Virus record (IMG/VR): IMGVR_UViG_3300045988_135203
Coordinates: 1-49,698 of that record
Direction: 5' to 3' (one strand)
Length of the DNA stretch: 49,698 nucleotides
Source of the DNA: a virus
Position 1 is the first letter of the stretch. Every line of letters begins with the position of its first letter. Shown in pieces: positions 2,272-42,311 of the stretch. Under the pieces are notes generated by a model. The model was not told the origin of the DNA and did no database searches. It worked only from the letters and a program-made list of their open reading frames with translations. A program made the position numbers and the translations under genes.

Positions 2272-2273
2272 TG

Positions 2274-3488: not shown

Positions 3489-3541
3489 AGTAATCTCCTT
3501 TTTAAATTAAATTATTGGATAACTACCATATATCAAACTCC

Positions 3542-3745: not shown

Positions 3746-3752
3746 CCTCCAA

Positions 3753-4811: not shown

Positions 4812-4814
4812 TTA

Positions 4815-8410: not shown

Positions 8411-9455
8411 TTTCTTTTAACTCCTCTTTTTCCTTTTTCTTTTTAGACCTCATTTTTGCATTATGAACTCTACACGCTGGACAAATTGTTGTTGGATTAT
8501 CTGCATCAATTTCAAACGCATTATTACATTGCGCGCACCAATCTACTTCAGTTGTACAACAATCTGGACAATAATATTTAGTTTTATTACCATCTTTGCT
8601 TAAAGCTGGAATAACTTCATAATCATGGAAATATTTATTACATTTATCGCATTTTAAAGTTGCATAATTATACTCAGCATCATCATCATCATACCAAGAT
8701 TTTTTTCTTCCTCTTTGAAAATAATAATTCCAAGAATTATTGGCATAACTATATTCAATATACTCAAAAAATGGTATATCTTTTACTTTTAGCATATTTT
8801 CAACTTTTTGTATAGTATTTAACATTGCCCCGACACGAAGAGTTTCACTAATGGTATGTTCATCTTCATAGCCAATAGATAAATTAACTCCTGCAATTCC
8901 CCAGGTTGGACAAATTACACTAATATCAGAAAAAGAACCAAAAGTTTCGACAAAGCCAAATTTTTCTATGTATTCTACAAAATCTCTATTATCACAATCA
9001 TAAAATACACAATCATTTGTACCTCTGCGGTCAAGCTGAATAATATATTTTAATTCTGATTCTGGAGATTTAATATCTTCAACTAATTGACTTGCTCCAA
9101 CAGCGCCAATTTCTTCATCTGTTGTAAAAATAATTGAAGGTCTATATCCATGTTTTAAAATTGTCAAAATAGCAAAAATACCTGCGCGGTCATCTGCCCC
9201 TAAACCATCTGGACTCCAGCAAACCCCTTTTCGTTCATCATAATATATATCTTCTGGGGGACTAGAAAACACTGTATCCATATGTGCAACTAAGGCTATT
9301 GGAATTTCACCTACCGCATAAAGATATTCTGATGCAACAATTACTTTTTTATATCTTTTCTTTAAATAACTATATAAAGCTCTACGCATTGAATTTTGTG
9401 TTAAAGAAGCTAAAGATTCAAAAAGTTTAAATTCATTTCGATTAAGTCTTTCCAT
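8397..9455 (-). CDS. M20/M28/M42-like Zn metallopeptidase domain fused to a C-terminal multi-CxxC zinc ribbon
   Basis: Motifs ALVAHMDTV (H-x-D), GADDRAG and TTDEEIGAVGA (Glu-Glu) in order, as in MH-clan aminopeptidases. The C-terminus reads CDKC...CPDCC...CAQC...CPAC. Confidence 0.65.
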   Translation of the reverse strand: MERLNRNEFKLFESLASLTQNSMRRALYSYLKKRYKKVIVASEYLYAVGEIPIALVAHMDTVFSSPPEDIYYDERKGVCWSPDGLGADDRAGIFAILTILKHGYRPSIIFTTDEEIGAVGASQLVEDIKSPESELKYIIQLDRRGTNDCVFYDCDNRDFVEYIEKFGFVETFGSFSDISVICPTWGIAGVNLSIGYEDEHTISETLRVGAMLNTIQKVENMLKVKDIPFFEYIEYSYANNSWNYYFQRGRKKSWYDDDDAEYNYATLKCDKCNKYFHDYEVIPALSKDGNKTKYYCPDCCTTEVDWCAQCNNAFEIDADNPTTICPACRVHNAKMRSKKKKEKEELKENGIQ

Positions 9456-9483
9456 TCACATTCCCCCTTTATTTTATATATAT

Positions 9484-9512
9484 ATTATATATTATTTATA
9501 ATAAAAAATCAA
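9484..9512 (-). promoter_or_regulatory. Class A promoter for 8397-9455
   Basis: TTGATT-N17-TATAAT. Confidence 0.55.
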
Positions 9513-10294
9513 TTATGGTCTATTTGCTCTTGAGCTTCCAAAAGAAAATCCTCATTAGCAAACATCATTGCTCTATAACATGCACGACAAGCTCCTCCAC
9601 TCATACAACGTTGTCCGCAACTAACTCTTTTTTTAATTACATCTTTTACAATTAAACGATTTAGTGCGGGATAGTCTAAATCTGTAACCAAAAGGTCTAA
9701 CCGCACATTCCATTCTTTTCTATTTTTATATATATCAAAAATAGCCTCTTCTTGATTGAGACCATCTGCATTAAATTCGTATGTAGTTATATATTTATCA
9801 TATATATCTAAGTCTTCTGGACGAATCCAAGAGCCACAAATGCCATTTTCTCTTTTTAAATCATCTTTTGCGGCGAGGTTAGGTGTTATGCGCAATGGAC
9901 ATTCGGTCAGCTCTGTTAATTGCGGTAATTGAAAAAATAGAGGCGCATCAATATTTAAGTAACATACTCCCATATGTACAAGCGCTTTTGCCTGATGAAA
10001 TGCAGTAACTGGTAAACCGCTATAAGAAGGAATACCATTATTTATACTATTTAATATTTCCCAGCTTTCAAAGGCTTCTGTAATTAATTTGTTTCTAGAT
10101 AAAGTATTATAATTTTTTAATTCTTCCCAATCTATAATTCTACTTCCTCTTGGCTGTAAAGAAAGAATTATAGTTTTATCAGGATATTGTTCAAATATTT
10201 CTGGTAATATTTTTCTATCTTTAAATGAGACTTTAATTTCATCTGCTTGGTCAAGAATGTTTTTTCTATGACCATATCTTAAACAAAACTTCAT
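9509..10294 (-). CDS. Hypothetical protein with C-terminal Cys cluster (CGQRCMSGGACRACY)
   Basis: 261-aa ORF preceded by a class A promoter at 9484-9512. Confidence 0.6.
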   Translation of the reverse strand: MKFCLRYGHRKNILDQADEIKVSFKDRKILPEIFEQYPDKTIILSLQPRGSRIIDWEELKNYNTLSRNKLITEAFESWEILNSINNGIPSYSGLPVTAFHQAKALVHMGVCYLNIDAPLFFQLPQLTELTECPLRITPNLAAKDDLKRENGICGSWIRPEDLDIYDKYITTYEFNADGLNQEEAIFDIYKNRKEWNVRLDLLVTDLDYPALNRLIVKDVIKKRVSCGQRCMSGGACRACYRAMMFANEDFLLEAQEQIDHN

Positions 10295-22354: not shown

Positions 22355-22461
22355 TGTAGGGGAGAGATTTATTCTCTCCCTTTTATTTTTGCGGCGACGC
22401 AGGTTCATCACTCTTATAGCTGGAATTAAAGTAGAATAGGGGCAGTAAAATCTTATATAAA

Positions 22462-22506
22462 TTATATATAGTATTCACAGGAAGTGTACCTATTCGTCAG
22501 AGGGTC
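22462..22506. repeat. Direct-repeat copy of the right arm of the 21482-21535 palindrome plus CAGAGGGTC
   Basis: AGTATTCACAGGAAGTGTACCTATTCGTCAGAGGGTCTCGATT resembles 21514-21556 AGTATACACAAAAAGTGTCCATCCTTTGCAGAGGGTCCAGAGGATT. Confidence 0.6.
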
Positions 22507-22599
22507 TCGATTAAATCTACGGAGCGGCAGCAGGTGCGCGAATAAAATTATCTTTTTTTAATATTATAACATAATATAAATAATTAATCAATAATTCTC

Positions 22600-22888
22600 A
22601 TTACCCTCGCCCGCATTAAAGAACGAGTCTCCGTTTTGGCTTAAAGAAACCGCAGGTTTCTTTAGCCTAATGAGGAGACAAATTTGGGGCGCGCCCTTTT
22701 TAAAGGGCGCAAGGGCTTCTTCCCGCAATTCACTTTACTCATGGATAAGAGCCATATGCTAGGTAATGCGGCCGGGTGCGCGGTTTCGGGAAAATTAGGC
22801 GCCATATGAAAACCGCTAGAAGTAGAAAAAAATCGCCATATGGGGTTCGCGAGCGGGAATTCGGGCCTTGCCTGTCGTCGGCGGCCCG
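22600..22888 (-). ncRNA. Candidate ~290-nt GC-rich structured noncoding RNA
   Basis: A GC-rich island in an AT-rich genome driven by a consensus promoter. Nested helices include GUCUCC...GGAGAC enclosing GGCUAAAGAAACC-UGC-GGUUUCUUUAAGCC, GGGCGCGCCC/AAGGGCGC, and CAUAUG repeated three times. Only Arg-rich ORFs without an RBS are present. Confidence 0.4.
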
Positions 22889-22890
22889 CC

Positions 22891-22920
22891 ATTATATCAC
22901 ACTTATCATTCTTTTGTCAA
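22891..22920 (-). promoter_or_regulatory. Minus-strand promoter of cassette 1 driving the GC-rich ncRNA candidate
   Basis: TTGACA-N17-TGATATAAT. Confidence 0.55.
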
Positions 22921-23048
22921 GCCCTTTTCTGCATTTAATTTCGATTCAGCAATTTGCACAAATCTAACCTTCAAAATTCGTCAAATTGCACAAACCGCAA
23001 AAATGCACAAAAAAGAGAGCAAATCCGCTCTCAATTTTGTTTATTATT

Positions 23049-23348
23049 TTAAAAAATGTAAGTTGCGTATAAAATACAATCAGCTACTGGTTCTGTCTGA
23101 TTATTTACCGTAGTGGCAAATGCAACAGCCACCGCGTAAATATCACATCCAGGAGAATCGAACACATGGTCACATTCAACCTCAAAATCAAATTTTTCAT
23201 TATCTTCTGGAATATATTCTTTTCCAACTTCTGAGATAACATCTTCAAATGACTCATCGTTTTCATTTATCTCTTTCCAACAGTCATCTCCCTCACTCCA
23301 AAATCCTCTTTTAATTAACATCTTTTCCAGATAATCTGCAAAACTCAT
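23049..23348 (-). CDS. Acidic hypothetical protein
   Basis: 99 aa with promoter TTGACT-N17-TATACT at 23380-23408. Confidence 0.55.
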   Translation of the reverse strand: MSFADYLEKMLIKRGFWSEGDDCWKEINENDESFEDVISEVGKEYIPEDNEKFDFEVECDHVFDSPGCDIYAVAVAFATTVNNQTEPVADCILYATYIF

Positions 23349-23379
23349 TTTTTATACCTCTCTTTCATTTGTTGAATTA

Positions 23380-23408
23380 AGTATACCATGTTTTAATTAA
23401 AAAGTCAA
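23380..23408 (-). promoter_or_regulatory. Class B promoter for 23049-23348
   Basis: TTGACT-N17-TATACT overlapping the terminator hairpin at 23413-23439. Confidence 0.5.
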
Positions 23409-23409
23409 G

Positions 23410-23440
23410 CGTTTTGGGGAAAATTTTCCCCAAAACTTAC
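23410..23440 (-). terminator. Terminator hairpin after 23440-23838 overlapping the next promoter
   Basis: GTTTTGGGGAAAATTTTCCCCAAAAC, a 10-bp stem, then a U-rich stretch on the minus strand. Confidence 0.5.
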
Positions 23441-23838
23441 TATTTTTTGGCTTTTCGCTTCTGGACAAGCGTTAATTCATAGTCATTTGAACCAATTTGA
23501 AAGAAAATCTGCCTTTCTGTATTGGTAATTTGTACATTTTCCGCACAAATTTCAGAATTTTCATTCAAAAACCGCTCAATTTCAGTAATAATCTTCTGTT
23601 TTACAGGGTTTTCTTTCTTCTTTTTGGCGGTATCGAACTTGTAAACAGTTCGTTTTTTTGTACCCGTACCCGCATATTTTTTAGCAACTTTTTTCTGCTC
23701 GGCGGATAACTCAAACAACTTTTCGCCCTTGTCAACCGCTTTATCATCCATGACCAACTGAATTGCTTCTGCTTCTGGAATGTCAAGGACTTTCATGTGA
23801 TGTTTTACAAGTTCCATGTCTTTTTGTGTAAGTTTCAT
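23440..23838 (-). CDS. Lys-rich protein, paralog family 2 (with 28807-29181)
   Basis: Shares MELxDI..EEA.Q...DD...DKGEKLF.L..EQ.K..KK ... KKTVYKFDT.K.KK.EN..KQ.IIT ... ENV..TN.ER with 28807-29181. Confidence 0.65.
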   Translation of the reverse strand: MKLTQKDMELVKHHMKVLDIPEAEAIQLVMDDKAVDKGEKLFELSAEQKKVAKKYAGTGTKKRTVYKFDTAKKKKENPVKQKIITEIERFLNENSEICAENVQITNTERQIFFQIGSNDYELTLVQKRKAKK

Positions 23839-23868
23839 AAATTATCAACTCCTTTATTTGATATATTT

Positions 23869-23897
23869 ATTATACTACCTTTTGGCTATTTTGTCAA
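23869..23897 (-). promoter_or_regulatory. Class B promoter for 23440-23838
   Basis: TTGACA-N17-TATAAT. Confidence 0.6.
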
Positions 23898-23927
23898 GGG
23901 TTCGGGGGAAAATCCCCCGAACTTTCT
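23898..23927 (-). terminator. Terminator hairpin after 23928-24302 overlapping the next promoter
   Basis: GTTCGGGGGATTTTCCCCCGAAC, a 10-bp stem. Confidence 0.45.
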
Positions 23928-24302
23928 TCATTCCTCAACAAGTGTAAAATAAGCTCTACGTTTTTCAACAACTCTATCAACTTTACCCTCTTTATAAAGG
24001 GCGGTAACAAGAGAAGTAACACGCTGATTAGTAAGTTCCGCAAGGTCTGGAACGGTTTTCATCATTTCAGATACAGTCTGTTTGTCAACTGTTTTGAGAT
24101 GAGCAAGGATTTTGACCTTGAGTTCCTCATTTTCTACCTGAGTGGCGGTAGGTTTTTTATTTGCGGAAGATTTTTTGTTTACCTGTGCAAGCATTTTCTG
24201 AAGCTTTTCAACAACCTCATCATACTGGTTATCTTCTTTCAGAACCTCGATTGCAGTTTCCAGTGCCATAGCGTTTGTCATTTTTTTGTTTGTCATAATC
24301 AT
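23928..24302 (-). CDS. Winged-helix-like protein, paralog family 1 (with 25693-26061 and 29228-29608)
   Basis: Shares N-terminal MTNAMALE.A.EVLKE and C-terminal ELTNQRVTSLVTALYKEGKVDRVVEKRRAYF (ArsR/MarR-like wing). Confidence 0.65.
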   Translation of the reverse strand: MIMTNKKMTNAMALETAIEVLKEDNQYDEVVEKLQKMLAQVNKKSSANKKPTATQVENEELKVKILAHLKTVDKQTVSEMMKTVPDLAELTNQRVTSLVTALYKEGKVDRVVEKRRAYFTLVEE

Positions 24303-24328
24303 TACCTCTTTCTTTATTTTATGTATTT

Positions 24329-24357
24329 ATTATATCACTTCTATATTCAGTTGTCAA
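24329..24357 (-). promoter_or_regulatory. Class B promoter for 23928-24302
   Basis: TTGACA-N17-TATAAT. Confidence 0.6.
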
Positions 24358-24461
24358 GACTTTTTTAAAACTTTTTTATTTTGGTGGGCTTCTCATTTTT
24401 ATTATCTCCCTTCCTTTATCTTTATACTTATTATAACACCCTTGTGGCTTTTTGTCAAGTG

Positions 24462-25070
24462 TTAATTTACATATTCTGCAAAAAATTTGTCTGCTTCTGT
24501 CATGTCAAAATGTTCGCTAATAAAGCGGTCATTCTTAAAAAAGCTGTTCGGGTATTTTTTGATATACTTTGCTCGAAACATAGACTCTACACCCTCAGCC
24601 GGCAGATTACCGCAGTCATAAACCCTATTAATAACGCAATAGGTTGCTCCCATGCCTTTATAAGTTTTTGAATTTAGTTCTTCTCTGATTCTCTGGAATA
24701 CGCTTCTTGTGGTTGTGCCGACTTTACTGCATACAAGTTCCATCTGTTCATTGAAAAATGCAATTAAATAACATTTTTCTAAACCTTTAGAATCATCCCA
24801 TGTCTTACAATCTTCTGAAATTGCAATACCCTCTTTTTTAATTTTTGCGGTAACGACTTTCCGCACATCTGTAATTTTATTAATTACTTTTTCTACTGGA
24901 TTGAGAACGTATGTTTTTACCCATTCTTTACTACTGGAATAAATCTTTTCACATACTTCAAACCAACGTTTTTTCCAACAAGGTGAAGTTGCTTTCCATC
25001 TTTCGTATGCACCCTCAAAATCATTGTTTTCCAGATACCAGTCCATTTTTTTATTTGCCATTTTTATCAA
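24462..25070 (-). CDS. Hypothetical protein
   Basis: 202 aa with a class B promoter at 25095-25123. Confidence 0.6.
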   Translation of the reverse strand: MIKMANKKMDWYLENNDFEGAYERWKATSPCWKKRWFEVCEKIYSSSKEWVKTYVLNPVEKVINKITDVRKVVTAKIKKEGIAISEDCKTWDDSKGLEKCYLIAFFNEQMELVCSKVGTTTRSVFQRIREELNSKTYKGMGATYCVINRVYDCGNLPAEGVESMFRAKYIKKYPNSFFKNDRFISEHFDMTEADKFFAEYVN

Positions 25071-25094
25071 TCCTCTCTGTTTTTCTATGTCTTT

Positions 25095-25123
25095 ATTATA
25101 GCACCTATTGGTTAGCTTGTCAA
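25095..25123 (-). promoter_or_regulatory. Class B promoter for 24462-25070
   Basis: TTGACA-N17-TGCTATAAT (extended -10). Confidence 0.6.
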
Positions 25124-25284
25124 GCGTTTTCTATAACTTTTTCAATCATTTTAAAGCGGTTAAAAATTACCTTACCACCACGAAATGTCAGACAAATCAT
25201 AGCAGTACCCTCAATTTGTGTAACATCATACACAAGTTTCTGACTTTTCAGTAATCCTACTAAAATTTCATAATCTGTTCTCAT
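25120..25284 (-). CDS. Small hypothetical protein (start trimmed; the 5' part of the track ORF is cassette 2 read antisense)
   Basis: ATG at 25284 with a GAGAGG RBS. The upstream 78 codons of the track ORF overlap a conserved noncoding cassette. Confidence 0.45.
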   Translation of the reverse strand: MRTDYEILVGLLKSQKLVYDVTQIEGTAMICLTFRGGKVIFNRFKMIEKVIENA

Positions 25285-25442
25285 TTCGTTTACCTCTCTT
25301 TCATTTGATACATTAAGTATACCATGAGCGGAGTAGAAATGCAAGTAGTAATATTGCACAAAGATGCGGCGAATTTTTTGTGCAATGTGCTGACTGGAGA
25401 ATTTTGGGAAATTTTGCGGTAAAAATTTGTGCAATTTTACTA

Positions 25443-25471
25443 TTGACAAATTTTGTGTCGTGTGGTATAAT
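25443..25471 (+). promoter_or_regulatory. Plus-strand (antisense-oriented) promoter of cassette 2
   Basis: TTGACA-N17-TGGTATAAT. Confidence 0.6.
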
Positions 25472-25477
25472 GATGAA

Positions 25478-25592
25478 TTCGGCCTAGCACAGTCGTGCGC
25501 CGGCCGCTCAAAAGTCAAGATGTAATTTTACACAAAAATAATTTTCGTCAAATTGCACAAAAAAGAAAGAGTCTGAATATTCAGACTCTTTC
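25478..25592 (+). ncRNA. Candidate ~115-nt antisense/small RNA of cassette 2
   Basis: Bounded by a consensus promoter and an intrinsic terminator, with a conserved 5' GC hairpin. Confidence 0.4.
25565..25592 (+). terminator. Intrinsic terminator of the cassette 2 RNA
   Basis: AAAGAGTCTGAATATTCAGACTCTTT. Confidence 0.5.
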
Positions 25593-25639
25593 ACAAGAAA
25601 GGAGGAAAACAAAATGATTAGTCAAAACCTTTCGGTTTA

Positions 25640-25690
25640 GAAGAGGGGTGAGAGGGAATCGAACCCTCTCGAACAACCGTTCCCCCTGTG
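25640..25690 (-). ncRNA. tRNA T-arm/acceptor-like minihelix immediately after stop of 25693-26061
   Basis: GAGAGGGTTCGATTCCCTCTC (7-bp stem with a canonical GGTTCGATTCC T-loop) flanked by GGGGG...CCCC. There are no D or anticodon arms. Confidence 0.3.
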
Positions 25691-25692
25691 GC

Positions 25693-26061
25693 TTACTCTA
25701 CAAAGAAGTAAGCCTTTCTTTTCTCAACCTCTCTCTGGATTTTTAAATCTTTAACAAGAGCGGTCAGCAGAGAAGTGATTCTCTGGTTTGTGAGTTCCGC
25801 AAGCTCTGGAACCTCTTTAGCAAGCTCTGTTGCTGTGAATCTCTTTTCGGATTCTGTAAGGAAGTTTACAATGATTTCTTTCAGCTTTTCATTTTCTTCC
25901 TGAGTAGCTGTTTTCTTTGTAGAAGATTTCTTCTTTTCAAAACCCTCTTTGATTTTTTCAAGCTTCTCAACCAGTTCAACAGAACCGTTGTTTTCTTTTA
26001 CAACCTTGATTGCCATTTCCATTGCTACTACGTTTGTAAGTTTGTTTGTCATACTTATCAC
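25693..26061 (-). CDS. Winged-helix-like protein, paralog family 1
   Basis: 122 aa carrying ELTNQRITSLLTALVKDLKIQREVEKRKAYF, with a class B promoter at 26091-26119. Confidence 0.65.
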   Translation of the reverse strand: MISMTNKLTNVVAMEMAIKVVKENNGSVELVEKLEKIKEGFEKKKSSTKKTATQEENEKLKEIIVNFLTESEKRFTATELAKEVPELAELTNQRITSLLTALVKDLKIQREVEKRKAYFFVE

Positions 26062-26090
26062 CTTTTCCTTTTCTTTTATTTTATGTATTT

Positions 26091-26119
26091 ATTATACCAT
26101 TTCTTTATTTAGTTGTCAA
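26091..26119 (-). promoter_or_regulatory. Class B promoter for 25693-26061
   Basis: TTGACA-N17-TATAAT. Confidence 0.6.
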
Positions 26120-26145
26120 GTCTTTTTTTATTTTTTCTTAAGGGC

Positions 26146-26313
26146 TTACTCGATGTAAGCCCCAGCGACATTCTTAATAGTGCCGTCCTGTCCAAAGAAG
26201 ATTACGTTATCCGCAACCACTCTTACACCTTTGCATCTCATCTCATGGCGAAAACCATAATCCTCTTTAAATCTTTTAATAAACTCTCTTTTTGTCATTT
26301 TTGTGTTTGTCAT
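26146..26313 (-). CDS. Small hypothetical protein (55 aa), absent from the ORF track
   Basis: ATG with a GAGAGG RBS and a class B promoter at 26345-26373. Confidence 0.45.
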   Translation of the reverse strand: MTNTKMTKREFIKRFKEDYGFRHEMRCKGVRVVADNVIFFGQDGTIKNVAGAYIE

Positions 26314-26344
26314 AACTTATTACCTCTCTTTTTCTTTTTTCTTT

Positions 26345-26373
26345 ATTATAGCACCAACTGCTAGGTTTGTCAA
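26345..26373 (-). promoter_or_regulatory. Class B promoter for 26146-26313
   Basis: TTGACA-N17-TGCTATAAT. Confidence 0.55.
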
Positions 26374-26451
26374 GTATTTTTTTAAATTTTTTTGAAGGCT
26401 TTACGCTTAACACTTGACTAAAAGCATTTACCTTTACTTCTTTATGTCTTT

Positions 26452-26480
26452 ATTATAACACCAGAAGTTTAATTTGTCAA
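26452..26480 (-). promoter_or_regulatory. Class B promoter (tandem, ~110 bp upstream of 26345-26373)
   Basis: TTGACA-N17-TATAAT. Confidence 0.5.
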
Positions 26481-26495
26481 GAGGTTTTTCAAATT

Positions 26496-26750
26496 TTATT
26501 TTGAAAGATTAACCTCAGCATCAACAGGTTCTACTCTCTGTACTCTATTAAAAGCTCGAATCTGCCCAGTAGCAAGATTAACTGCCATTACATTGTCTTT
26601 GTAGCTGTCAAGGAAAATACCACTATTTCTATCAACAACCATGTACAATCCCACTTCATCAACACCACTTCTTTTACTAAAGAATGTGCTTCCCACTGTC
26701 AACTTGTAAACATAAATTCCTGTCGCTTTCCTATCATAATTAACTTTCAT
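26496..26750 (-). CDS. Hypothetical protein
   Basis: 84 aa with a promoter at 26784-26812. Confidence 0.55.
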   Translation of the reverse strand: MKVNYDRKATGIYVYKLTVGSTFFSKRSGVDEVGLYMVVDRNSGIFLDSYKDNVMAVNLATGQIRAFNRVQRVEPVDAEVNLSK

Positions 26751-26783
26751 TTTTTATCATTTCCTTTCCTTTATTATGTATAT

Positions 26784-26812
26784 ATAATATCATATTTTTT
26801 ATTGTTTGTCAA
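26784..26812 (-). promoter_or_regulatory. Class B-like promoter for 26496-26750
   Basis: TTGACA-N17-TATTAT. Confidence 0.5.
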
Positions 26813-26828
26813 TAGTTTTTTAAAATTT

Positions 26829-27311
26829 TTACAGATTTTTGGTTTCGCTCACAAAATACTTTGCATGATAAACATTTAATAAATCTTTAACTGCCTTGCT
26901 TTGATTTTGATTTGCACAATAGCAATTAATTAAAACATATTTGTCAATATCAATATAATTGCAAGGTACGTGACAATCTTTAAGTTTTTTAACAAGCTCT
27001 TCCCAGCCAACAGCTTTTAAAACAGTTGCTTCTACTTTCCACAGTTTGTCTTTTCTTGCTTTCTCTTCACCCCATTTTACAAGCCAAACACCAATTAAAT
27101 TAGCAAGAAAAGTTACAACAACTTTTTGCCATAATGGAAAATCTGCGACTGTATAAATAAGAACCACATTATAATAACCATAATATCCCGCAGAAATAAG
27201 GCTTGCGACTGTTTTTCCTGATTTAATTGTTACAATAGATTTAATAGTTGAAAAGATAACGTTTACAACTGTCAATAATGAAAATAAAATTAATACATTC
27301 ATTGATTTCAC
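26829..27311 (-). CDS. Membrane protein (multiple N-terminal TM helices) with Cys-rich C-terminal domain
   Basis: 160 aa with a class B promoter at 27331-27359. Confidence 0.6.
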   Translation of the reverse strand: MKSMNVLILFSLLTVVNVIFSTIKSIVTIKSGKTVASLISAGYYGYYNVVLIYTVADFPLWQKVVVTFLANLIGVWLVKWGEEKARKDKLWKVEATVLKAVGWEELVKKLKDCHVPCNYIDIDKYVLINCYCANQNQSKAVKDLLNVYHAKYFVSETKNL

Positions 27312-27330
27312 TCACTTTCTTTTTTCTTTT

Positions 27331-27359
27331 ATTATACACCTACTTATGGATTTTGTCAA
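27331..27359 (-). promoter_or_regulatory. Class B promoter for 26829-27311
   Basis: TTGACA-N17-TATAAT. Confidence 0.6.
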
Positions 27360-27367
27360 GGACTATT

Positions 27368-27658
27368 TTATAAAATAGTCCTTGTTGTAATTTTTAATAA
27401 TTCACCTGTATCTTTATCATAATAAATAGTTGCTTCTGTACCAATAGGACAAACATAATTATCAATAGAATAAATTATATCACCCTGTTTATTTTCAAAT
27501 TCCATAGTAGTAGAATCACTGTCCTCGTGGTAAATTTTCTTTGTTGCAGTAACTTCTGTATATCTTACATTGCTAGTGTAATTTTCTGTGCTGATAATTA
27601 CTATTATGATAATAACCGCCAAACCAATTCCGGCTAATACATCACGCCATACTTTCAT
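27368..27658 (-). CDS. Membrane-anchored small protein
   Basis: 96 aa with an N-terminal TM/signal segment. Confidence 0.55.
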   Translation of the reverse strand: MKVWRDVLAGIGLAVIIIIVIISTENYTSNVRYTEVTATKKIYHEDSDSTTMEFENKQGDIIYSIDNYVCPIGTEATIYYDKDTGELLKITTRTIL

Positions 27659-27660
27659 AA

Positions 27661-27789
27661 CTATATTTCCTCACTTTCTTTAAAAATTTCTTCAATCAGC
27701 TTTTTAGTTTCTTCTACACCAACGTATAAAGCTGACTTTTCGATTGCATCAAATAAAAGTGTTTTTGCTTCCATTTCTTTTTCTGTCAT
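27661..27789 (-). CDS. Small hypothetical protein (42 aa), absent from the ORF track
   Basis: ATG after a GAGAGG RBS, with a class B promoter at 27821-27849. Confidence 0.4.
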   Translation of the reverse strand: MTEKEMEAKTLLFDAIEKSALYVGVEETKKLIEEIFKESEEI

Positions 27790-27820
27790 GCTTTTTATCT
27801 CCTCTCTTAACTATGCACTT

Positions 27821-27849
27821 ATTATATCATAGGGGCTGAGGTTTGTCAA
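27821..27849 (-). promoter_or_regulatory. Class B promoter with the -35 inside a GGGG...CCCC hairpin
   Basis: GGGGGTTGACAAACCTCAGCCCC hairpin immediately after the stop of 27866-28204, then TATAAT. Confidence 0.55.
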
Positions 27850-27865
27850 CCCCCATTTTTAATTT

Positions 27866-28204
27866 TTAATGATTAAACCGCAAATAAATTTTAGTCCAGC
27901 TGAAGCCGAAACGCTCTTCTAACTGTTTTTCTTCTTCTGAATTCGTTTCCATGATTGAAATTTTCATAATTGTATCCCAGTCAATAGTTGTAAACCATGT
28001 TCCTTCTTTCATGCCTTTACTAAAGCGGAAATTGTCAAGAATGTAATCCATTACTTTCTGTTTTTTAATTGTTTTCATACATTCTTCCAGAGAAATAACC
28101 TGACTGCTAAAAACTGGTTTAGTTTCAAAACCTGTTACTTTCCATCCGCTAATTTTACTTTCAATATTTAACATAATTATCAACCTCTCTTTCATTTGAT
28201 ACAT
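27866..28204 (-). CDS. Hypothetical protein
   Basis: 112 aa with a class B promoter at 28207-28235. Confidence 0.55.
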   Translation of the reverse strand: MYQMKERLIIMLNIESKISGWKVTGFETKPVFSSQVISLEECMKTIKKQKVMDYILDNFRFSKGMKEGTWFTTIDWDTIMKISIMETNSEEEKQLEERFGFSWTKIYLRFNH

Positions 28205-28206
28205 TT

Positions 28207-28235
28207 ATTATATCACAGGGGATTGAACTTGTCAA
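28207..28235 (-). promoter_or_regulatory. Class B promoter for 27866-28204, hairpin-embedded -35
   Basis: TTGACA-N17-TGTGATATAAT. Confidence 0.55.
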
Positions 28236-28244
28236 CCCCTAATT

Positions 28245-28478
28245 TTATAAAATTCCTTCAATCTCACAACATTTGCGACAAGCATTAATGCAATCATTCC
28301 ATAAGCCATCAGTGCTTGCGTACTCTGTTAAAATTTCATCATCCCATCCATCCTCAAGACCGCAAGCAAGCCAAACATCAATTACTACATCTTCACTGAT
28401 ATTTTCTCTGATAAATGTATCCATCTGCCTGAGTAAGTTCTTTCTAATTCTAACCATTTCATTTCTTGATACTTTCAT
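28245..28478 (-). CDS. Small Cys-containing hypothetical protein
   Basis: 77 aa with a promoter at 28511-28539. Confidence 0.5.
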   Translation of the reverse strand: MKVSRNEMVRIRKNLLRQMDTFIRENISEDVVIDVWLACGLEDGWDDEILTEYASTDGLWNDCINACRKCCEIEGIL

Positions 28479-28510
28479 TTGCTTGTTCCCCTTTCCTTAT
28501 CTTTAAATAT

Positions 28511-28539
28511 AGTATACTATAGGTGTGCGGTTTTGTCAA
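28511..28539 (-). promoter_or_regulatory. Class B promoter for 28245-28478
   Basis: TTGACA-N17-TATACT. Confidence 0.5.
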
Positions 28540-28637
28540 TATACAAAATAACCAAAAGTATAAAGCAATTTTTGTGCGGTTTGCCGATTGGTAGAATTTT
28601 GGGATTTTCTAGGCGTTATTTTTGTGCAAAATGTCTA

Positions 28638-28667
28638 TTGACAAATAGTTGCTTCGTGTGTTATAAT
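28638..28667 (+). promoter_or_regulatory. Plus-strand promoter of cassette 3
   Basis: TTGACA-N18-TATAAT. Confidence 0.55.
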
Positions 28668-28673
28668 TGAAGT

Positions 28674-28795
28674 TCGGGCCTAAGCGCACGCTGCCGGCCC
28701 GCCGATTTGTCAAGATGTAATTTTGCACAAAGATTCAGCTAAAACTTTGTGAAAACCGCACAAAAAACGCCGAATTAAAAATTCAGCGTTTTGCA
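28674..28795 (+). ncRNA. Candidate ~120-nt small RNA of cassette 3
   Basis: Promoter-to-terminator unit with a conserved GC hairpin. Confidence 0.4.
28762..28795 (+). terminator. Intrinsic terminator of the cassette 3 RNA
   Basis: AAAAAACGCCGAATTAAAAATTCAGCGTTTT. Confidence 0.5.
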
Positions 28796-28806
28796 CAAAA
28801 ATTAAA

Positions 28807-29181
28807 TTATTTTCTTGGCATACTTAGTACAATTTTATACTTGGTGCCATTCAGTTCAAAAAAGAACTCACGTTCATTGTTAGTCACATCTAAATTTTCT
28901 GCTCCCAGTTTTTCGACCGATTCTGTCAAAGCTGTGATGATAGCTTGCTTTCCTTTATTTTCTGGTTTTTTTCTTTTGGAAGTATCAAACTTGTAAACAG
29001 TTGTTTTTTTCTTGCGGTCTGCCTGTCGTGCTTTTTTAGATGCTTTTTCCTGTTCTGGTGTCAATGTAAAAAGTTTTTCCCCCTTGTCTATTCTTCTGTC
29101 ATCTTCTAACATTTGCGTTGCTTCTTCTCTGCTAATGTCTAGCAGTTCCATGTTACGCTCTATAATTTCGTTGTCTGTCAT
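28807..29181 (-). CDS. Lys-rich protein, paralog family 2
   Basis: 124 aa, paralog of 23440-23838, directly downstream of the wHTH paralog 29228-29608. Confidence 0.65.
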   Translation of the reverse strand: MTDNEIIERNMELLDISREEATQMLEDDRRIDKGEKLFTLTPEQEKASKKARQADRKKKTTVYKFDTSKRKKPENKGKQAIITALTESVEKLGAENLDVTNNEREFFFELNGTKYKIVLSMPRK

Positions 29182-29227
29182 TTTTAAGCCCTTTCTTTAA
29201 GTGATAGGGGGCTTTCGCCCCCTTTAA

Positions 29228-29608
29228 TTATTTTGCAAAAAAGTATGCTTTGCGTTTTTCAACCATTCTGTCAACTTTGCCTTCACTGCAAAGGGAAGTT
29301 ACAAGAGAAGTTACACGCTGATTTGAAAGTTCTTTCAATTCTTCAACTTCTTTCATCAGCTCAGAAACAGTAAGTCCATTGCCCGTATCCACAAGGTATT
29401 CAACAATTTTTTCTTTTAAGTGTTCGTTTTCAAGCTGAGTTGCTGTTGGCTTACGATTTGCGGAAGATTTTTTGTTTACCTGTACAAGCATTTTGTCAAG
29501 TTTCTCGATAACCTCTGTATACTTCTCTACATCAGTTTCTTTCAGAACCTCAAGTGCGATTTCCAGTGCCATAGCGTTTGTCATTTTTTTGTTTGTCATA
29601 CTTATCAA
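29228..29608 (-). CDS. Winged-helix-like protein, paralog family 1
   Basis: 126 aa carrying MTNAMALEIALEVLKE ... ELSNQRVTSLVTSLCSEGKVDRMVEKRKAYF. Confidence 0.65.
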   Translation of the reverse strand: MISMTNKKMTNAMALEIALEVLKETDVEKYTEVIEKLDKMLVQVNKKSSANRKPTATQLENEHLKEKIVEYLVDTGNGLTVSELMKEVEELKELSNQRVTSLVTSLCSEGKVDRMVEKRKAYFFAK

Positions 29609-29662
29609 TTCCTTTCTTAATAAGAGATTTATTATTTGTTTTCTATGTCTTTATTATACCAC

Positions 29663-29690
29663 CTGTAGTCTTGTTTGTCAAGACCTTTTT
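29663..29690 (-). promoter_or_regulatory. Class B promoter for 29228-29608
   Basis: TTGACA-N16-TATAAT. Confidence 0.55.
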
Positions 29691-29799
29691 TATTTTTCTT
29701 TTGGGGGACTTCTCATTGTTTTTCACTTCCTTTCTTTATCTTGTAATAATAATACCATATTTTTTACATTTTGTCAATAGTTTTTTTAAATTTTTTTCT

Positions 29800-30522
29800 T
29801 TATTTTTCCCAGAGTCCAGTTCTCATTTTTTTGTGCTGTCTATAACAATAATGACAGATTTCTTTTTCAATCAGAACGTCCTCAAGTCCAGTGTGTTTTT
29901 CTACAAAAGTATTATCTTTTGTAATAAATCTGTAAAGAATTTCGGCTGTCACTCTTAACTGTCCTCTAGTTGTGAGATAGTTATTTTCTTCACAAAATCT
30001 TCTGTATGATGGCATTTTACACACTACATCACGAGCCATTTTCATAGTATCACAGATTTCCAAACCATAAGGAAAGAAATATCTATACTTTGATTTAGTC
30101 AGCCAACGCTGAGTAGTGTTTAATGTGCCATAGTCAAAACGCATATTGTGAGCGAAAACTTTTGTTACGTTGTAACGTTCACAGCACTCTACAAGTTGTT
30201 TTCTGATATTGTAGAAAGATGTTAAAATTCTTTTACCGCTTTTAATATCTTCCCAATACATCGGAATTTTATTTGCATAGTACGCAGATTTCATAAGCTG
30301 TTTTTCATCAAGAAAAATGTCAGCATTTACGAATGACCATGTTTCAAAAACTTCACCAGTACGCTTGTTAATGACAGCAAAACCGCAATCATAAACCCAC
30401 ATATTTGTTGGAAGTACCTGTTCTAATGTTTTGTCTACTGGACAAGTTTCTGTATCAATTACAATGGAGTAATCCATTCTTCTGTCAATCTTATTAGTGT
30501 TTGGTCTGTTGATAAATTCCAT
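29800..30522 (-). CDS. DEDDh-type 3'-5' exonuclease (DnaQ/RNase T-like)
   Basis: Exo I SIVIDTETCP (DxE), Exo II FAHNMRFDYGTL and Exo III HTGLEDVLIEKEI (H-x4-D) in canonical order. Confidence 0.75.
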   Translation of the reverse strand: MEFINRPNTNKIDRRMDYSIVIDTETCPVDKTLEQVLPTNMWVYDCGFAVINKRTGEVFETWSFVNADIFLDEKQLMKSAYYANKIPMYWEDIKSGKRILTSFYNIRKQLVECCERYNVTKVFAHNMRFDYGTLNTTQRWLTKSKYRYFFPYGLEICDTMKMARDVVCKMPSYRRFCEENNYLTTRGQLRVTAEILYRFITKDNTFVEKHTGLEDVLIEKEICHYCYRQHKKMRTGLWEK

Positions 30523-30555
30523 TTTTGTTTACCTCTCTCTCATCTCTATGTCTTT

Positions 30556-30584
30556 ATTATATCACCAGTGAAGAGGTTTGTCAA
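30556..30584 (-). promoter_or_regulatory. Class B promoter for 29800-30522
   Basis: TTGACA-N17-TGATATAAT. Confidence 0.6.
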
Positions 30585-30756
30585 GAACTTTTTTAACTTT
30601 TTTGTAAGTTTTTTTATTTGCTTTCTTGTCTCTCTCTTCCTTACAAGTATTATAATACCACAAGCCACTAAAGATTGCAAGGATTATTTTTAAAAAAAAT
30701 TGCACAAAATAGATGGTTAATTTTTGTATAAAATGACCAATAGAAAAAGTGTACAA
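30562..30756 (-). CDS. Doubtful small ORF overlapping operator repeats and a promoter
   Basis: 64 aa, hydrophobic N-terminus. It reads through TTGTGCAA repeats and the class B promoter of the next gene. Confidence 0.2.
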   Translation of the reverse strand: MYTFSIGHFIQKLTIYFVQFFLKIILAIFSGLWYYNTCKEERDKKANKKTYKKVKKVLDKPLHW

Positions 30757-30866
30757 AGATTAAGGTGCGGTTTGTCATTTTTTTGGTAATCCTGCACAAA
30801 GATATTTTTCATCACATCGCACAATTTCGGGAATTTTTTTGTTATTATTTTTGTCTATTTTGCCTA

Positions 30867-30895
30867 TTGACAAAAGTTGCTCCCTGTGGTATAAT
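30867..30895 (+). promoter_or_regulatory. Plus-strand promoter of cassette 4
   Basis: TTGACA-N17-TGGTATAAT. Confidence 0.6.
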
Positions 30896-30943
30896 GGAAT
30901 TTCGGGCCTTGGCGTAAGTGAAGCGCTCGCCTGCGGCCCGCCA

Positions 30944-30972
30944 ATTTTATCACCTTTTGGAAAGTTTGTCAA
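30944..30972 (-). promoter_or_regulatory. Minus-strand promoter of cassette 4, face-to-face with 30867-30895
   Basis: TTGACA-N17-TAAAAT about 50 bp from the plus promoter, so the transcripts overlap across the GC hairpin. Confidence 0.5.
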
Positions 30973-30987
30973 GTAATAAAATTGCAC

Positions 30988-31018
30988 AAAAAAGAGGGCT
31001 TAAAGCCCTCTTTATTTT
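30988..31018. terminator. Bidirectional intrinsic terminator in cassette 4
   Basis: AAAAAAGAGGGCTTAAAGCCCTCTTTATTTT. Confidence 0.65.
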
Positions 31019-31206
31019 ACATCTACCATTTTAATTTTGTGAGGCTTGTTTTTTGCCTCCGCATAACTTGTGGTTTCTTTTACAACTTTTTTACTTTCCA
31101 TAATCTGATAAACAACTTTTCTCATTTTTAATACCTCTCTTTTCTTCTTTTCTATGATTTAATTATACTATAGGGCTTGGCTTTTGTCAAGCCCCTTTTT
31201 CATTTT

Positions 31207-33379: not shown

Positions 33380-33529
33380 TTTATTTACCCCTCTTCCTTT
33401 ATCTTGATTATAGTATAGCATGGTTACGGGAAAATGTCTATAGGCAAATTGCACAAAGATTTCGCTGTAAAATAGTTGAATTTCTCTGTTTTGCACAAAA
33501 ACCGGCCGCAGCGCTTGTCGCCGGCCGGC

Positions 33530-33558
33530 CATTTTATCACACTTCTTCATTTCTGTCA
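33530..33558 (-). promoter_or_regulatory. Minus-strand promoter of cassette 5
   Basis: TTGACA-N17-TGATAAAAT. Its leader contains the GC hairpin and TTGTGCAA repeats and runs into 33155-33379. Confidence 0.5.
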
Positions 33559-33573
33559 AGTAGTAAAATTGCA

Positions 33574-33608
33574 CAAAAAAAGAGCTGAAATTTCAGCTCT
33601 TTTTTTTT
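33574..33608. terminator. Bidirectional intrinsic terminator in cassette 5
   Basis: AAAAAAAGAGCTGAAATTTCAGCTCTTTTTTTTT. Confidence 0.65.
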
Positions 33609-37306: not shown

Positions 37307-37335
37307 ATTATACCACAGATGCGCGGCGATGTCAA
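37307..37335 (-). promoter_or_regulatory. Class B promoter with a ~130-nt leader
   Basis: TTGACA-N17-TGGTATAAT. Confidence 0.55.
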
Positions 37336-37510
37336 TAGGTAATATTGCACAAAGATTAATTATTATTTTTGTGCAACATGCTGTTGTGCAATGTGACGAA
37401 TTTTGGGAAATGAACTAAAATATTTTTGTGCAAGTTTTTGCTTGACAAATTGTTGTGTCTCGTGTTATAATTGAAATTAGGGCCTGCGCCTGCGTCTACG
37501 GCCCGAGGAT
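37320..37510. promoter_or_regulatory. Regulatory cassette 7
   Basis: TTGCACAAA, TTTGTGCAA twice, TTGTGCAA and GAATTTTGGGAAATG, then promoter at 37443-37471 and hairpin AGGGCCTGCGCCTGCGTCTACGGCCCG. Confidence 0.45.
37443..37471 (+). promoter_or_regulatory. Plus-strand promoter of cassette 7 pointing towards the homing-endonuclease region
   Basis: TTGACA-N17-TATAAT followed by the AGGGCC...GGCCCG hairpin. Confidence 0.55.
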
Positions 37511-37674
37511 TTAACGAGAGCGTCATTACTTTTTATGTATTTTTCTCAGATAAACCTGAAATGAAAGTGAACTTATGTTTCGTTTACCCCGGGGCATATT
37601 TCAGGAAGAAAAATTTTTGATTTTTGAAAATCGTTTTGCTCTGGACAAAATTCTTCTAAAAGGGATTTTAAAAT

Positions 37675-39105: not shown

Positions 39106-39401
39106 CTTATAATTACCGTTCCATGCTTTCCTTCTTTTCTCAACCTCTCCAAAACTGGATGGCAGGAATTTTTTTCATTCATAAATACAATAGCAAAATC
39201 AAGTTCTTTAATATAATCATTAAATGCGCCAAAAAAATATTTTTTGCCGGAACCATTATTTTCTGCCCATTTATCTCCCAAAGAATTGGGAGAACACACT
39301 ATATTAAATAAATATGTCCCCTTTATTTCAATAAGCTCATTTAATCTTTTGTCCAAAAGGTCATAATCATCAAGTGTGCCTCCAATTATTCCTACATTCA
39401 T
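39102..39401 (-). CDS. SLOG/DUF2493-like Rossmann-fold protein (YpsA/DprA-like)
   Basis: VGIIGGT ... LGDKWAENNG ... ELDFAIVFMNE ... GTVII pattern typical of DUF2493 SLOG domains. Confidence 0.5.
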   Translation of the reverse strand: MNVGIIGGTLDDYDLLDKRLNELIEIKGTYLFNIVCSPNSLGDKWAENNGSGKKYFFGAFNDYIKELDFAIVFMNEKNSCHPVLERLRKEGKHGTVIIR

Positions 39402-40267
39402 GCGATTGGCTCAATAAAAATTAACTTATCAATATAATCTCTATCCGCACCTTTGAAAATAGGAATTTTATAATCTATTTTCCATTTGCGGCGAACAATT
39501 ATTCTTTCACCAATTTGTTCTCCAAAATAAACATTTGGCTCTTTAATTGTTTCTTTAATTGTTTCTTTTTCTTCTATTTTGATACATGCGGTACCGCGTT
39601 TACATGGAATTGTAAAGTCATTCCAATTAATTCCACATTGAGTCATTAGCATATCTTGAATATCATTACAAGTTTTATCTTTAAGTTTGGCATGTGAAAA
39701 ACAAGCTTGTCCCACCATTTGAATACTATTCCGCGTTGCATCCAATTGCCGCCAATAAATAAGATTAGTTACTTCTTCTTTTGGAATATTAAAACATCTT
39801 GCGTCAAACATTGCTCCTTTTTCTGCGGCATTTACATATCTTTCAATAAGCCTTTTATTTCCCTCTATAAGAGGGTCATGAGTCGAATTATATTTAATTA
39901 TATTCTCAGAAAAATATTTATTAAAAGCCATTGTTGCCATAGAAGCTGATACGGAAGCCATTTTCTGAACCTCATAATTAAACCAAGCCTCTGAGGTTAA
40001 CTTTTGGTAATCAGTTAAAATTAAAGTAATTTCATCTGATTGAGTATATCCAAAAATACAACCCTGAATATTTTCACAAAGATACTTCATTGTCCTTTGC
40101 ATCGTATCCATTAATACAGGATCAAATGGTTTCTGAAAGCCTCGTGTAAAAGTATGAAAAGCTTTTCCATCAAGCCTAATAGCTACTGGCATGCGGCGAA
40201 GTAATTGTGTTTTTGCGGGATTTTCATAAAAATCTTTCATTCTTGCGGCAAGTTCACTATTATCCAT
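39398..40267 (-). CDS. Thg1-like protein (tRNA-His guanylyltransferase family 3'-5' nucleotidyltransferase)
   Basis: VAIRLDGKAFHTFT, YTQSDEITLIL and IYWRQLDATRNSI match the Thg1/TLP core motifs (RLDG-x-FH-x-F, YGQSDE, WRQ-D). Confidence 0.75.
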   Translation of the reverse strand: MDNSELAARMKDFYENPAKTQLLRRMPVAIRLDGKAFHTFTRGFQKPFDPVLMDTMQRTMKYLCENIQGCIFGYTQSDEITLILTDYQKLTSEAWFNYEVQKMASVSASMATMAFNKYFSENIIKYNSTHDPLIEGNKRLIERYVNAAEKGAMFDARCFNIPKEEVTNLIYWRQLDATRNSIQMVGQACFSHAKLKDKTCNDIQDMLMTQCGINWNDFTIPCKRGTACIKIEEKETIKETIKEPNVYFGEQIGERIIVRRKWKIDYKIPIFKGADRDYIDKLIFIEPIA

Positions 40268-41252: not shown

Positions 41253-42311
41253 ATGATTAAATTAGACTATACTATACAAACTCCAGAAGAAAGAAACGAA
41301 TTAGTGAAAAAAATTTTGGAAGAAACTCCTGATCCTAGTGAGAGATATTTAGAAATTTTGGCTGACTACCTCGTTCTTTGTATGGAGAAACAAGAGAAGA
41401 AGCAGAAACAAATTTTAACAGAAAATCGAATGACAACTGTTAATAAGAGAGAAACTTCTTATGAAGGTCTTGTTTCCCAATTAGAAAATGGCGAAGATGG
41501 TATCTATAACCTAATAAATGAAAGTAAAACAACAATATTTCAACCAAAAGTGACAATAACAAAGAAAGATTTAGAAGAAATACCTTATTTGAGACAATTA
41601 CGTGATGCTATCAATAGTTGGGAAATAAAACTTAAAAAAGCGCAGGGGCGCGATGCGTATATAATTAAAAAAGCATTGATCGAAATGCGTAAAGACCAAT
41701 ATGTAATAAAAAATGCTTACCGCAAACCTATTATCTTTAATAAAATTAGTCGTTCTAATTTTGCATCTAGATTGGTTGAAGATTTTACATTAGATGAAAA
41801 TAATTATATTGTTCCTAGTGGGGTTTCTTTATGTGACCCCGCGGTTTGTTCATTAATTCTTTGTAATTATTCACAGCTTAAAGAAGAAAGTTGGGGAAAA
41901 TTTGAAGGTGATTTATGGTACCTTATGGAATCATTTGATAAAGTATCTACAGCCGCTTTAGAAGAGTATCCACTATATGAAGAAATAGTAAAATGTAAAA
42001 TAGATGGATTGCAGAATATAGAAATACAAAAAATACTAAAACAAAAATACGATACTACTCATAGCTTAGAATATATTTCTAGCTTATGGAGAAAAAAGAT
42101 TCCAAATCTTATTGCCTCGAAAGCAGAAGATGTAGAATTAAGTTGGTATTTTTTAAATACCGAAAAAGGCAAATATAAAAGATGTAGTCGATGCGGGAAA
42201 ATTAAACTTGCTCATAATAAATATTTTAGTAAAAATAAAACTAGCAAAGATGGCTGGTATTCTATTTGTAAAGAATGTAGAAATAAAAAAAATAAGGACA
42301 AAAAGAAATAA
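41253..42311 (+). CDS. Hypothetical protein with C-terminal zinc ribbon (first gene of the plus-strand late module)
   Basis: 352 aa with CSRCGK...CKEC, a GGAGG RBS, and a plus promoter TTGACT-N17-TATAAT at 41201-41229. Confidence 0.6.
   Translation: MIKLDYTIQTPEERNELVKKILEETPDPSERYLEILADYLVLCMEKQEKKQKQILTENRMTTVNKRETSYEGLVSQLENGEDGIYNLINESKTTIFQPKVTITKKDLEEIPYLRQLRDAINSWEIKLKKAQGRDAYIIKKALIEMRKDQYVIKNAYRKPIIFNKISRSNFASRLVEDFTLDENNYIVPSGVSLCDPAVCSLILCNYSQLKEESWGKFEGDLWYLMESFDKVSTAALEEYPLYEEIVKCKIDGLQNIEIQKILKQKYDTTHSLEYISSLWRKKIPNLIASKAEDVELSWYFLNTEKGKYKRCSRCGKIKLAHNKYFSKNKTSKDGWYSICKECRNKKNKDKKK

Follow-up and report, generated by a model that had tools for sequence, protein, structure and literature searches.

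A duplicated operon of winged-helix and Lys-rich early genes and its neighbouring promoter and hairpin cassettes in an uncultured tailed phage

Analysis of a 49,698-nt stretch of viral DNA (IMG/VR record IMGVR_UViG_3300045988_135203, positions 1 to 49,698; hereafter the window) revealed two copies of a conserved early-gene operon, each encoding a winged-helix (WH) protein and a Lys-rich partner protein, together with a third, solo WH gene. We tentatively read the two proteins as a DNA-binding pair, made early, with a downstream non-coding cassette gating its expression in cis, a reading to which we assign a probability of roughly 0.35. On this reading the module would take its place among the small early DNA-binding proteins of phages, and the observation extends well beyond this genome; the WH and partner families are unannotated in Pfam, NCBIfam and PHROG yet very common in gut and rumen viromes, and knowing what the pair does would supply annotations for thousands of phage genes and explain how the early programme is organised in a large group of uncultured 100–400 kb phages. 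The window is part of a tailed-phage genome of low GC content (~32%), carries a tRNA cluster and genes for a phage sigma factor, terminase and portal, and has metagenomic Caudoviricetes contigs of ~180 kb as close relatives. From ~40.3 kb down to 22.6 kb all of its genes lie on the minus strand, and this stretch, with ~42 near-consensus TTGACA-N16–18-TATAAT promoters (about one per small gene), is an early-gene array.

The open reading frame (ORF) list and alignments bore out the initial annotation, which had placed three paralogs of ~120 aa at 23928–24302, 25693–26061 and 29228–29608 and two paralogs of a second family at 23440–23838 and 28807–29181. The pairwise comparison that it had proposed gave identities of 54–71% among the WH proteins and of about 47–50% between the Lys-rich proteins. 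Its statement that a Lys-rich gene follows a WH gene holds when the region is read on the minus strand, on which all five genes lie, and not otherwise. The WH genes probably start at ATG (MTNK...) rather than at the upstream TTG or GTG codons, because relatives are 123 aa long; their ends accordingly move to 24296, 26052 and 29599. Module C then comprises the WH C gene (29228–29599, minus strand, 123 aa from the ATG, position 29608 being an upstream TTG; seen in the ORF list, the alignment and an AlphaFold2 model) and the gene for Lys-rich partner C (28807–29181, minus strand, 124 aa), which starts 46 nt past the stop codon of WH C and lacks its own promoter. Module A comprises WH A (23928–24296, minus strand, 122 aa) and Lys-rich partner A (23440–23838, minus strand, 132 aa), while WH B (25693–26052, minus strand, 119 aa) is solo, without a Lys-rich partner. 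Compared with the orthologues in three related loci (L001, L003 and L004), all five genes are under purifying selection, with ratios of non-synonymous to synonymous substitution (dN/dS) of 0–0.29 (0.09–0.29 for the WH genes, including 0.16–0.27 for WH C, and 0–0.14 for the partner genes).

The duplicated unit of modules A and C is larger than the two genes and can be aligned as DNA over ~1.05 kb, in the order promoter, mini-ORF MRSPPK(EK) with its ribosome-binding site (RBS), WH promoter, WH gene, GC hairpin and Lys-rich gene. A consensus promoter of its own, TTGACA-N17-TATAAT, precedes each WH gene and carries none of the sequence boxes described below, and the promoter of the partner gene at 23869–23897 was gained in module A. 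The GC hairpin between WH C and Lys-rich C (29206–29223) is terminator-like on the plus strand only, and its equivalent in module A lies at ~23900–23922, between WH A and Lys-rich A. The mini-ORF, of 6–8 codons with a consensus promoter and a strong RBS, is kept in L001 and L003–L005 and is absent before WH B. In module C it encodes MRSPPKEK (29690–29716, minus strand; own promoter 29749–29777; kept in L001 and L005) just upstream of the WH C promoter at 29653–29681, and in module A it encodes MRSPPK (24376–24396, minus strand; own promoter 24430–24458; kept in L003–L005) just upstream of the WH A promoter at 24329–24357. Because of its Pro-Pro, the peptide is a candidate stalling or leader peptide.

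Related loci (numbered with the prefix L) were gathered via either protein and scanned with hidden Markov models (HMMs), and 47 distinct, that is non-identical, loci were counted, which are not phylogenetically independent. A WH gene lay directly upstream of 70 of the 76 Lys-rich genes in these loci, and a partner followed 70 of the 104 WH genes; WH protein and partner are therefore a conserved unit in a large group of 100–400 kb phages. The fetched stretch of each genome held one to five WH copies, most commonly two or three. The paired-solo-paired layout of the window, with the middle solo copy kept, is common to L001 and L003–L008; the distant relative L009 (32% protein identity) has three WH genes too, but with the solo copy first. 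Beyond these loci, a WH profile search of 1.84 billion representatives returned 2561 clusters (at 50% identity) with E≤1e-3 and 828 with E≤1e-10, mostly of full-length proteins of 115–130 aa, and the partner family, which is without a curated model, numbered 3369 relatives or matches. Megablast of 22400–31200 and tblastn of WH C found no match among cultured or deposited phages; the Lys-rich protein matched only phAss-1, whose gene products all carry the label hypothetical. One relative, L002, is from a Lachnospiraceae metagenome-assembled genome (MAG) and, taken with the host prediction for phAss-1 (PMC10607447), this suggests that the host range probably lies within the Clostridia.

The two families differ in how their copies have evolved, and the homogenised WH copies beside old, diverged partners are a clean evolutionary signal that calls for explanation. 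The partner copies fall into two old subtypes common to different phage lineages: in L006 the positional orthologue of a window partner is 57–59% identical to it, versus 50% between the two partners of the window itself. WH A and WH C, by comparison, are 71% identical to one another and each only 55–58% identical to its L006 positional orthologue, and WH copies are likewise closer within than between genomes in L006, L009 and L002. The WH copies were more alike than the partner copies in all 26 of the distinct genomes with two pairs (median identity 70% vs 41%). Slower evolution of the WH protein was considered as the cause and rejected, as it changes faster than the partner between orthologues. 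Given this, and a synonymous divergence of 0.9 between WH A and WH C as against saturation between the partner copies, the WH copies have been homogenised or re-duplicated within genomes, the opposite of diversification, with the partners as old, diverged paralogs.

The C-terminal half of the WH protein was predicted to be a winged helix by AlphaFold and Foldseek, the fold that the initial annotation had expected structure prediction to reveal. The AlphaFold2 model, built from 94 diverse members, has a predicted local distance difference test score (pLDDT) of 93.8 and consists of a helical hairpin (residues 8–46), a short basic linker and the WH domain (helices 53–72, 78–84 and 93–106; wing 109–122), with nothing past the wing. 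The best Foldseek matches were the Hop2 WH domain, MecI/BlaI, repressors of the MarR/ArsR type (including AdcR), Z-alpha domains and plasmid centromere binders, with E-values of about 0.004–0.05 and a probability of about 1.0 to MecI, BlaI, AdcR, ArsR and the Hop2 WH domain. Matches to WH families (Penicillinase_R, Mnd1, TBPIP, MarR_2) also appeared below threshold in Pfam and PDB sequence searches. Searches of the window proteins with Pfam, PHROGs, NCBIfam and PADLOC gave nothing above threshold: scores fell short of the Pfam gathering score for Penicillinase_R (14.6–18.7 vs 22.6 bits) and for Mnd1 (23.0 vs 23.5 bits), and in PADLOC WH C matched no more than weakly, to the CRISPR-associated Csa3 and Cas8g models (E 1e-3 to 8e-3), with no match for WH B and the two Lys-rich proteins. 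No result spoke to the superinfection control or the anti-defence role that the initial annotation had offered as examples. The architecture of MarR, ArsR and BlaI, in which dimerisation helices follow or flank the WH domain, was not found here, the hairpin being N-terminal to it. The model thus confirms the WH fold, and not membership of any one WH family.

The partner is Lys-rich through a basic central linker, with a net charge of ~+10 over roughly residues 46–75, and its N-terminal domain is acidic. The AlphaFold2 model of partner C (pLDDT 83.6) has three N-terminal helices, the linker at low confidence, and one helix with three strands; no known fold was matched. Among 90 partner relatives, 23 gave sub-threshold matches to the Lsr2 dimerisation model, through a β-hairpin with the pattern F.L.G..YEI.L at the C-terminus of the partner. 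The best relative reached 26.2 bits against a cut-off of 29.6 (PF11774), over 20–33 residues and profile positions 20–38 only; the two Lys-rich proteins of the window did not match this model, and a Pfam search found no match to the C-terminal DNA-binding domain of Lsr2.

Downstream of the modules lie cassettes built on a common plan: a terminator whose T-run leads into GTGCAA, boxes of the sequence TTGTGCAA in both orientations, a promoter, and a GC-rich hairpin of variable sequence. The box occurs 20 times in the window versus 3.25 expected, a count reached in 0 of 100 shuffles. It stands 8–9 nt upstream of the −35 element in promoters of the minus strand (six) and of the plus strand (four, one of which has the variant TTGTACAA), and boxes recur at a spacing of 24–25 bp; a literature search for TTGTGCAA found only primer sequences. 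The cassette directly after module C (28480–28800, minus strand; cassette 28k) has a terminator with TTTTGTGC, boxes, a −35 element, a GC hairpin at 28675–28702 and a facing plus-strand promoter at 28638–28667. The cassette after WH B (25290–25690, minus strand; cassette 25k) has a tRNA-like fragment at 25620–25690, a terminator, boxes, a GC hairpin at 25479–25507 and a facing plus-strand promoter at 25443–25471, and in both of these cassettes the minus-strand promoter is reduced to its −35 element. The cassette after module A plus one gene of 99 aa (22580–23045, minus strand; cassette 23k), conserved with L002 and L006, has a terminator, boxes, a promoter at 22891–22920, a GC hairpin at 22862–22889 and a GC-rich stretch. 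Three more lie on the minus strand without a module, at 30560–31010 (upstream of a gene of 240 aa, with a facing plus-strand promoter at 30867–30895), 33440–33600 (short) and 37330–37520. Z-scores of the cassette GC hairpins ranged from −1.1 to −5.5, and a search of Rfam assigned neither the cassettes nor the GC-rich stretch to a family.

The plus-strand promoters of 25443–25471, 28638–28667 and 30867–30895 are perfect (12/12) and face back. With two others near 35904 and 37440 they form a set of perfect or near-perfect plus-strand promoters amid the minus-strand region, each with a TTGTGCAA-type box 8 nt upstream, save for 30867–30895 with its degenerate upstream box, and each facing a minus-strand promoter across a GC hairpin. 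Since no ORF lies downstream of them, they would yield antisense RNAs: as judged from the sequence, the promoter of cassette 28k would make an RNA antisense to Lys-rich C, past which the next terminator-like site on the plus strand is the hairpin at 29206–29223 between Lys-rich C and WH C, and the promoter of cassette 25k would point into WH B.

The initial annotation had each of the three loci followed by one of three cassettes. This is accurate for module C, which the cassette follows directly, and for WH B, past a tRNA-like fragment of ~70 nt, while module A reaches its cassette only past the 99-aa gene. Nor are there three cassettes, one per locus, but at least six in the window, three of them without a module, and the modules therefore do not own cassettes one-to-one. 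The association itself is found again in relatives, where modules stay syntenic with cassettes down to 32% protein identity (L009), as that annotation's view of the neighbourhood foresaw. Among box-rich loci, 33 of 61 module ends had a TTGTGCA box no more than 200 nt downstream, compared with 68 of the 486 ends of other genes (odds ratio 7.2; p 1.7e-11 in a Fisher test, p-values that overstate independence because the loci are related), and GC islands showed the same trend towards enrichment downstream of modules in loci with and without the box. Distant relatives have the same cassette plan with another box (TTGTCGAA in L002, ATGCATGC in L009 and AAATACAAT in L011); in L009 the palindromic ATGCATGC/TGCATGCA occurs 19–30 times in 10 kb, clustered in cassettes and right after all three WH modules.

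Under the explanation that we prefer, an early DNA-binding pair gated in cis, WH dimers, possibly including ones in which the N-terminal hairpin joins two different paralogs, would bind DNA by way of the third helix and the wing, which are conserved across the family. Each WH protein would recruit the adjacent partner, whose basic linker could add non-specific affinity for DNA, and the two partner subtypes might then give two functionally distinct complexes straight after infection. The downstream cassette would act mainly in cis on its module: its terminator would end the module transcript and, in cassettes 28k and 25k, the perfect box-bearing promoter on the opposite strand would direct transcription back across the module and so control it by antisense or by collision, with the box itself probably read by another factor of host or phage origin. 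Several observations weigh against this explanation. With a net charge of 0 to +2 the WH proteins are almost neutral, an uncommon property in a protein that coats DNA generally; cassette 23k lacks a facing promoter, and a gene stands between it and module A; in L002 and L009 the facing −35-like TTGTCAA has, by eye, no good −10; the enrichment of boxes after modules treats related loci as independent; and homogenisation of WH copies within genomes also fits co-evolution with a genome-specific DNA site. A bolder version, which we regard as rather doubtful, is that the WH-partner operon and its trailing cassette make up one self-contained, repeated regulatory unit of an undescribed kind, in which the WH copies of a genome are kept identical by gene conversion and act on facing promoters that are flanked by boxes, separated by a hairpin and fire back into the operon. 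If so, a single autoregulatory switch would recur several times along the early region as punctuation, each copy with one of the two old partner subtypes.

The initial annotation had suggested diversified regulators with cognate sites, and a related possibility is that the WH proteins are sequence-specific but redundant readers of TTGTGCAA, acting as repressors or activators of the promoters that bear the box in every cassette. The nearness of the fold to BlaI/MecI and MarR-type repressors would suit such a role, as would the fixed position of the box on about ten promoters of both strands, the 24–25 bp spacing of box pairs and the synteny of modules with cassettes; box and WH protein are, moreover, both homogeneous within a genome and differ between some lineages, such as L002, L009 and L011. 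Diversification, however, is not what the region shows, given the homogenised WH copies, the single box in all six cassettes and the nearly identical recognition helices of the three window proteins (NQRVTSLVTAL, NQRITSLLTAL and NQRVTSLVTSL). That the recognition helix tracks the box looked plausible on six lineages and was rejected on the 47 loci, which showed no covariation. The identical helix SNQRVSALLRQM is found with and without TTGTGCA boxes (13 boxes in L028 versus 1–4 in L062, L064 and L076), the same box is found with the very different helices STSKVSAVVRIL (L050) and NTSKMSSLCNSL (L045), and the helix is among the most conserved parts of the 2561-cluster family. Phage phAss-1, in turn, has a near-identical cassette sequence and a partner-like gene without a clear WH-family member, its candidates being a weak HMM match (E 0.006; hhalign probability 16%) and a 91-aa protein matching in the WH region only (hhalign 63%). 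This comparative evidence speaks against reading of the box by the WH protein, and we consider the redundant box-reader somewhat unlikely. For the box of L002, TTGTCGAA / TTCGACA (2880–3080 and 4790–4960, 9 nt upstream of the −35 element), which we take to resemble the 0A box of Spo0A (TGTCGAA), this likeness hints at possible recognition by a host factor in the L002 lineage. A Spo0A box was likewise considered for the window and rejected, TTGTGCAA being unlike the 0A box though TTGTCGAA is similar to it.

The conserved helix and wing could instead suit a conserved target shape, with the WH protein reading structure rather than sequence, for instance the GC hairpin, a cruciform or another unusual form of DNA or RNA between the facing promoters, the shape of which is kept while the sequence is not. 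In the window, L002, L006, L009 and phAss-1 alike, GC hairpins of differing sequence are found at the same point of the cassette, the enrichment of GC islands after module ends does not depend on the box, and Z-alpha domains are among the structural matches. Z-alpha domains, however, are marked by an Asn and a Tyr four residues apart in helix 3 and by a Pro-Pro-x-Trp wing, and by inspection neither is found in the WH protein, where helix 3 (S-N-Q-R-V-T-S-L) has no Tyr four residues after the Asn and the wing (EKRKAYF) has no PPxW; the Foldseek matches (E about 0.02) are those of a generic WH domain and the hairpin z-scores are modest. We judge this proposal decidedly unlikely. We also think it unlikely, if less so, that WH protein and partner bind no nucleic acid and are protein binders for host takeover (for example of RNA polymerase or of a tandem-WH relative in the host), with the cassettes as transcription punctuation. 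The setting amid numerous small early genes that all have a strong promoter, the near-neutral WH charge, the existence of bacterial chromosomal homologues and some weak matches to protein-binding WH domains (Rpc34, MCM WHD, APC2 and Vps25) are in its favour, but the basic character of the linkers and of the conserved wing KRKAYF points to contact with nucleic acid, and this reading would offer no explanation for cassettes being seven-fold enriched after modules.

Comparison with known systems gave partial likenesses to the DNA-binding pair and its cassettes. The BlaI/MecI and MarR/ArsR-type repressors share the fold of the C-terminal 70 residues of the WH protein, a weak sequence similarity (Penicillinase_R, MarR_2), small size and a probably dimeric state; the phage proteins differ from them in the reversed domain order, with the helical hairpin N-terminal, in scores below Pfam thresholds, in having no ligand or sensor domain, and in a helix that is conserved over thousands of clusters rather than tracking an operator. 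In Bacillus phage phi29 the small regulator p4 and the abundant, basic architectural protein p6 act on oppositely oriented promoters, and here too a probable DNA binder and a basic protein, both small and early, lie beside facing promoters and repeated boxes; the likeness noted is one of layout, and unlike in phi29 the unit is present 2–3 times per genome and the cassettes six or more times. Silencers of the Lsr2/Rok type and their phage relatives similarly combine an oligomerisation element, a basic linker and a DNA-binding element, and one WH relative weakly matches WH_Rok, whereas the partner lacks the C-terminal DNA-binding domain of Lsr2 and the domain order differs. The cassettes alone recall the face-to-face promoter switches of coliphages 186 and P2, which work by transcriptional interference, in having two strong promoters that face each other a few tens of bases apart; here, however, several such pairs occur within what seems to be a lytic early region, with a GC hairpin at the overlap, the same box upstream of both promoters and a non-coding plus-strand transcript.

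Outside the phages, six long bacterial proteins (P0148, P0131, P0169, P0196, P0256 and P0258; 338–1394 aa) carry 2–4 tandem WH copies at their end, after a coiled coil. The gene for P0148 (L013, 6001–7536) is chromosomal and lies beside metK and ftsH, while P0256 also has a HIRAN domain, the region of which matched PDC-M03B in PADLOC. Two of the long tandem-WH proteins pass the Penicillinase_R threshold (30 bits), which no window protein does. The tandem-WH proteins are an uncharacterised cellular family related to the phage WH proteins.

Two of the cassettes contain further possible RNA elements. The GC-rich non-coding stretch of ~280 nt at 22580–22860 (minus strand), which follows the promoter and hairpin of cassette 23k, has blocks (CCCCATATGGCGATTTTTT ... 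ATTTTCCCGAAACC) in common with L002 (6480–6620) and L006 (about 7300–7560) and is a candidate structured RNA. The tRNA-like fragment of ~70 nt at 25620–25690 (minus strand), between the WH B stop and its cassette, has a T-arm GAGAGGGTTCGATTCCCTCTC and a short acceptor stem, and ARAGORN made no call on it. A tRNA-like element of ~95 nt occupies the same position in phAss-1 (OQ749652, about 129238–129332; L021 43239–43333), and its similarity to the tmRNA model is confined to the tRNA-like ends of that model and, at 22.5 bits, does not reach the gathering score. Elsewhere in the region, −35 hexamers lie inside GC hairpins (for example GGGGTTGACAAGTTCAATCCCC) at 28215–28236, 27829–27850, 29668–29684 and 31173–31194, so that a gene's terminator-like hairpin and the promoter of the following gene overlap.

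The window also contains seven tRNA genes (185–4211), a gene like that for tRNA-His guanylyltransferase (39398–40267, minus strand; phrog_4717, E 4e-85) and the gene for the phage sigma factor (41253–42311, plus strand; phrog_5767), which opens the plus-strand late block. In L001, a gene resembling HNH/NUMOD4 homing endonucleases (9302–9826) is inserted between the gene for a 239-aa protein and WH C, at a site where the window has only the mini-ORF region.

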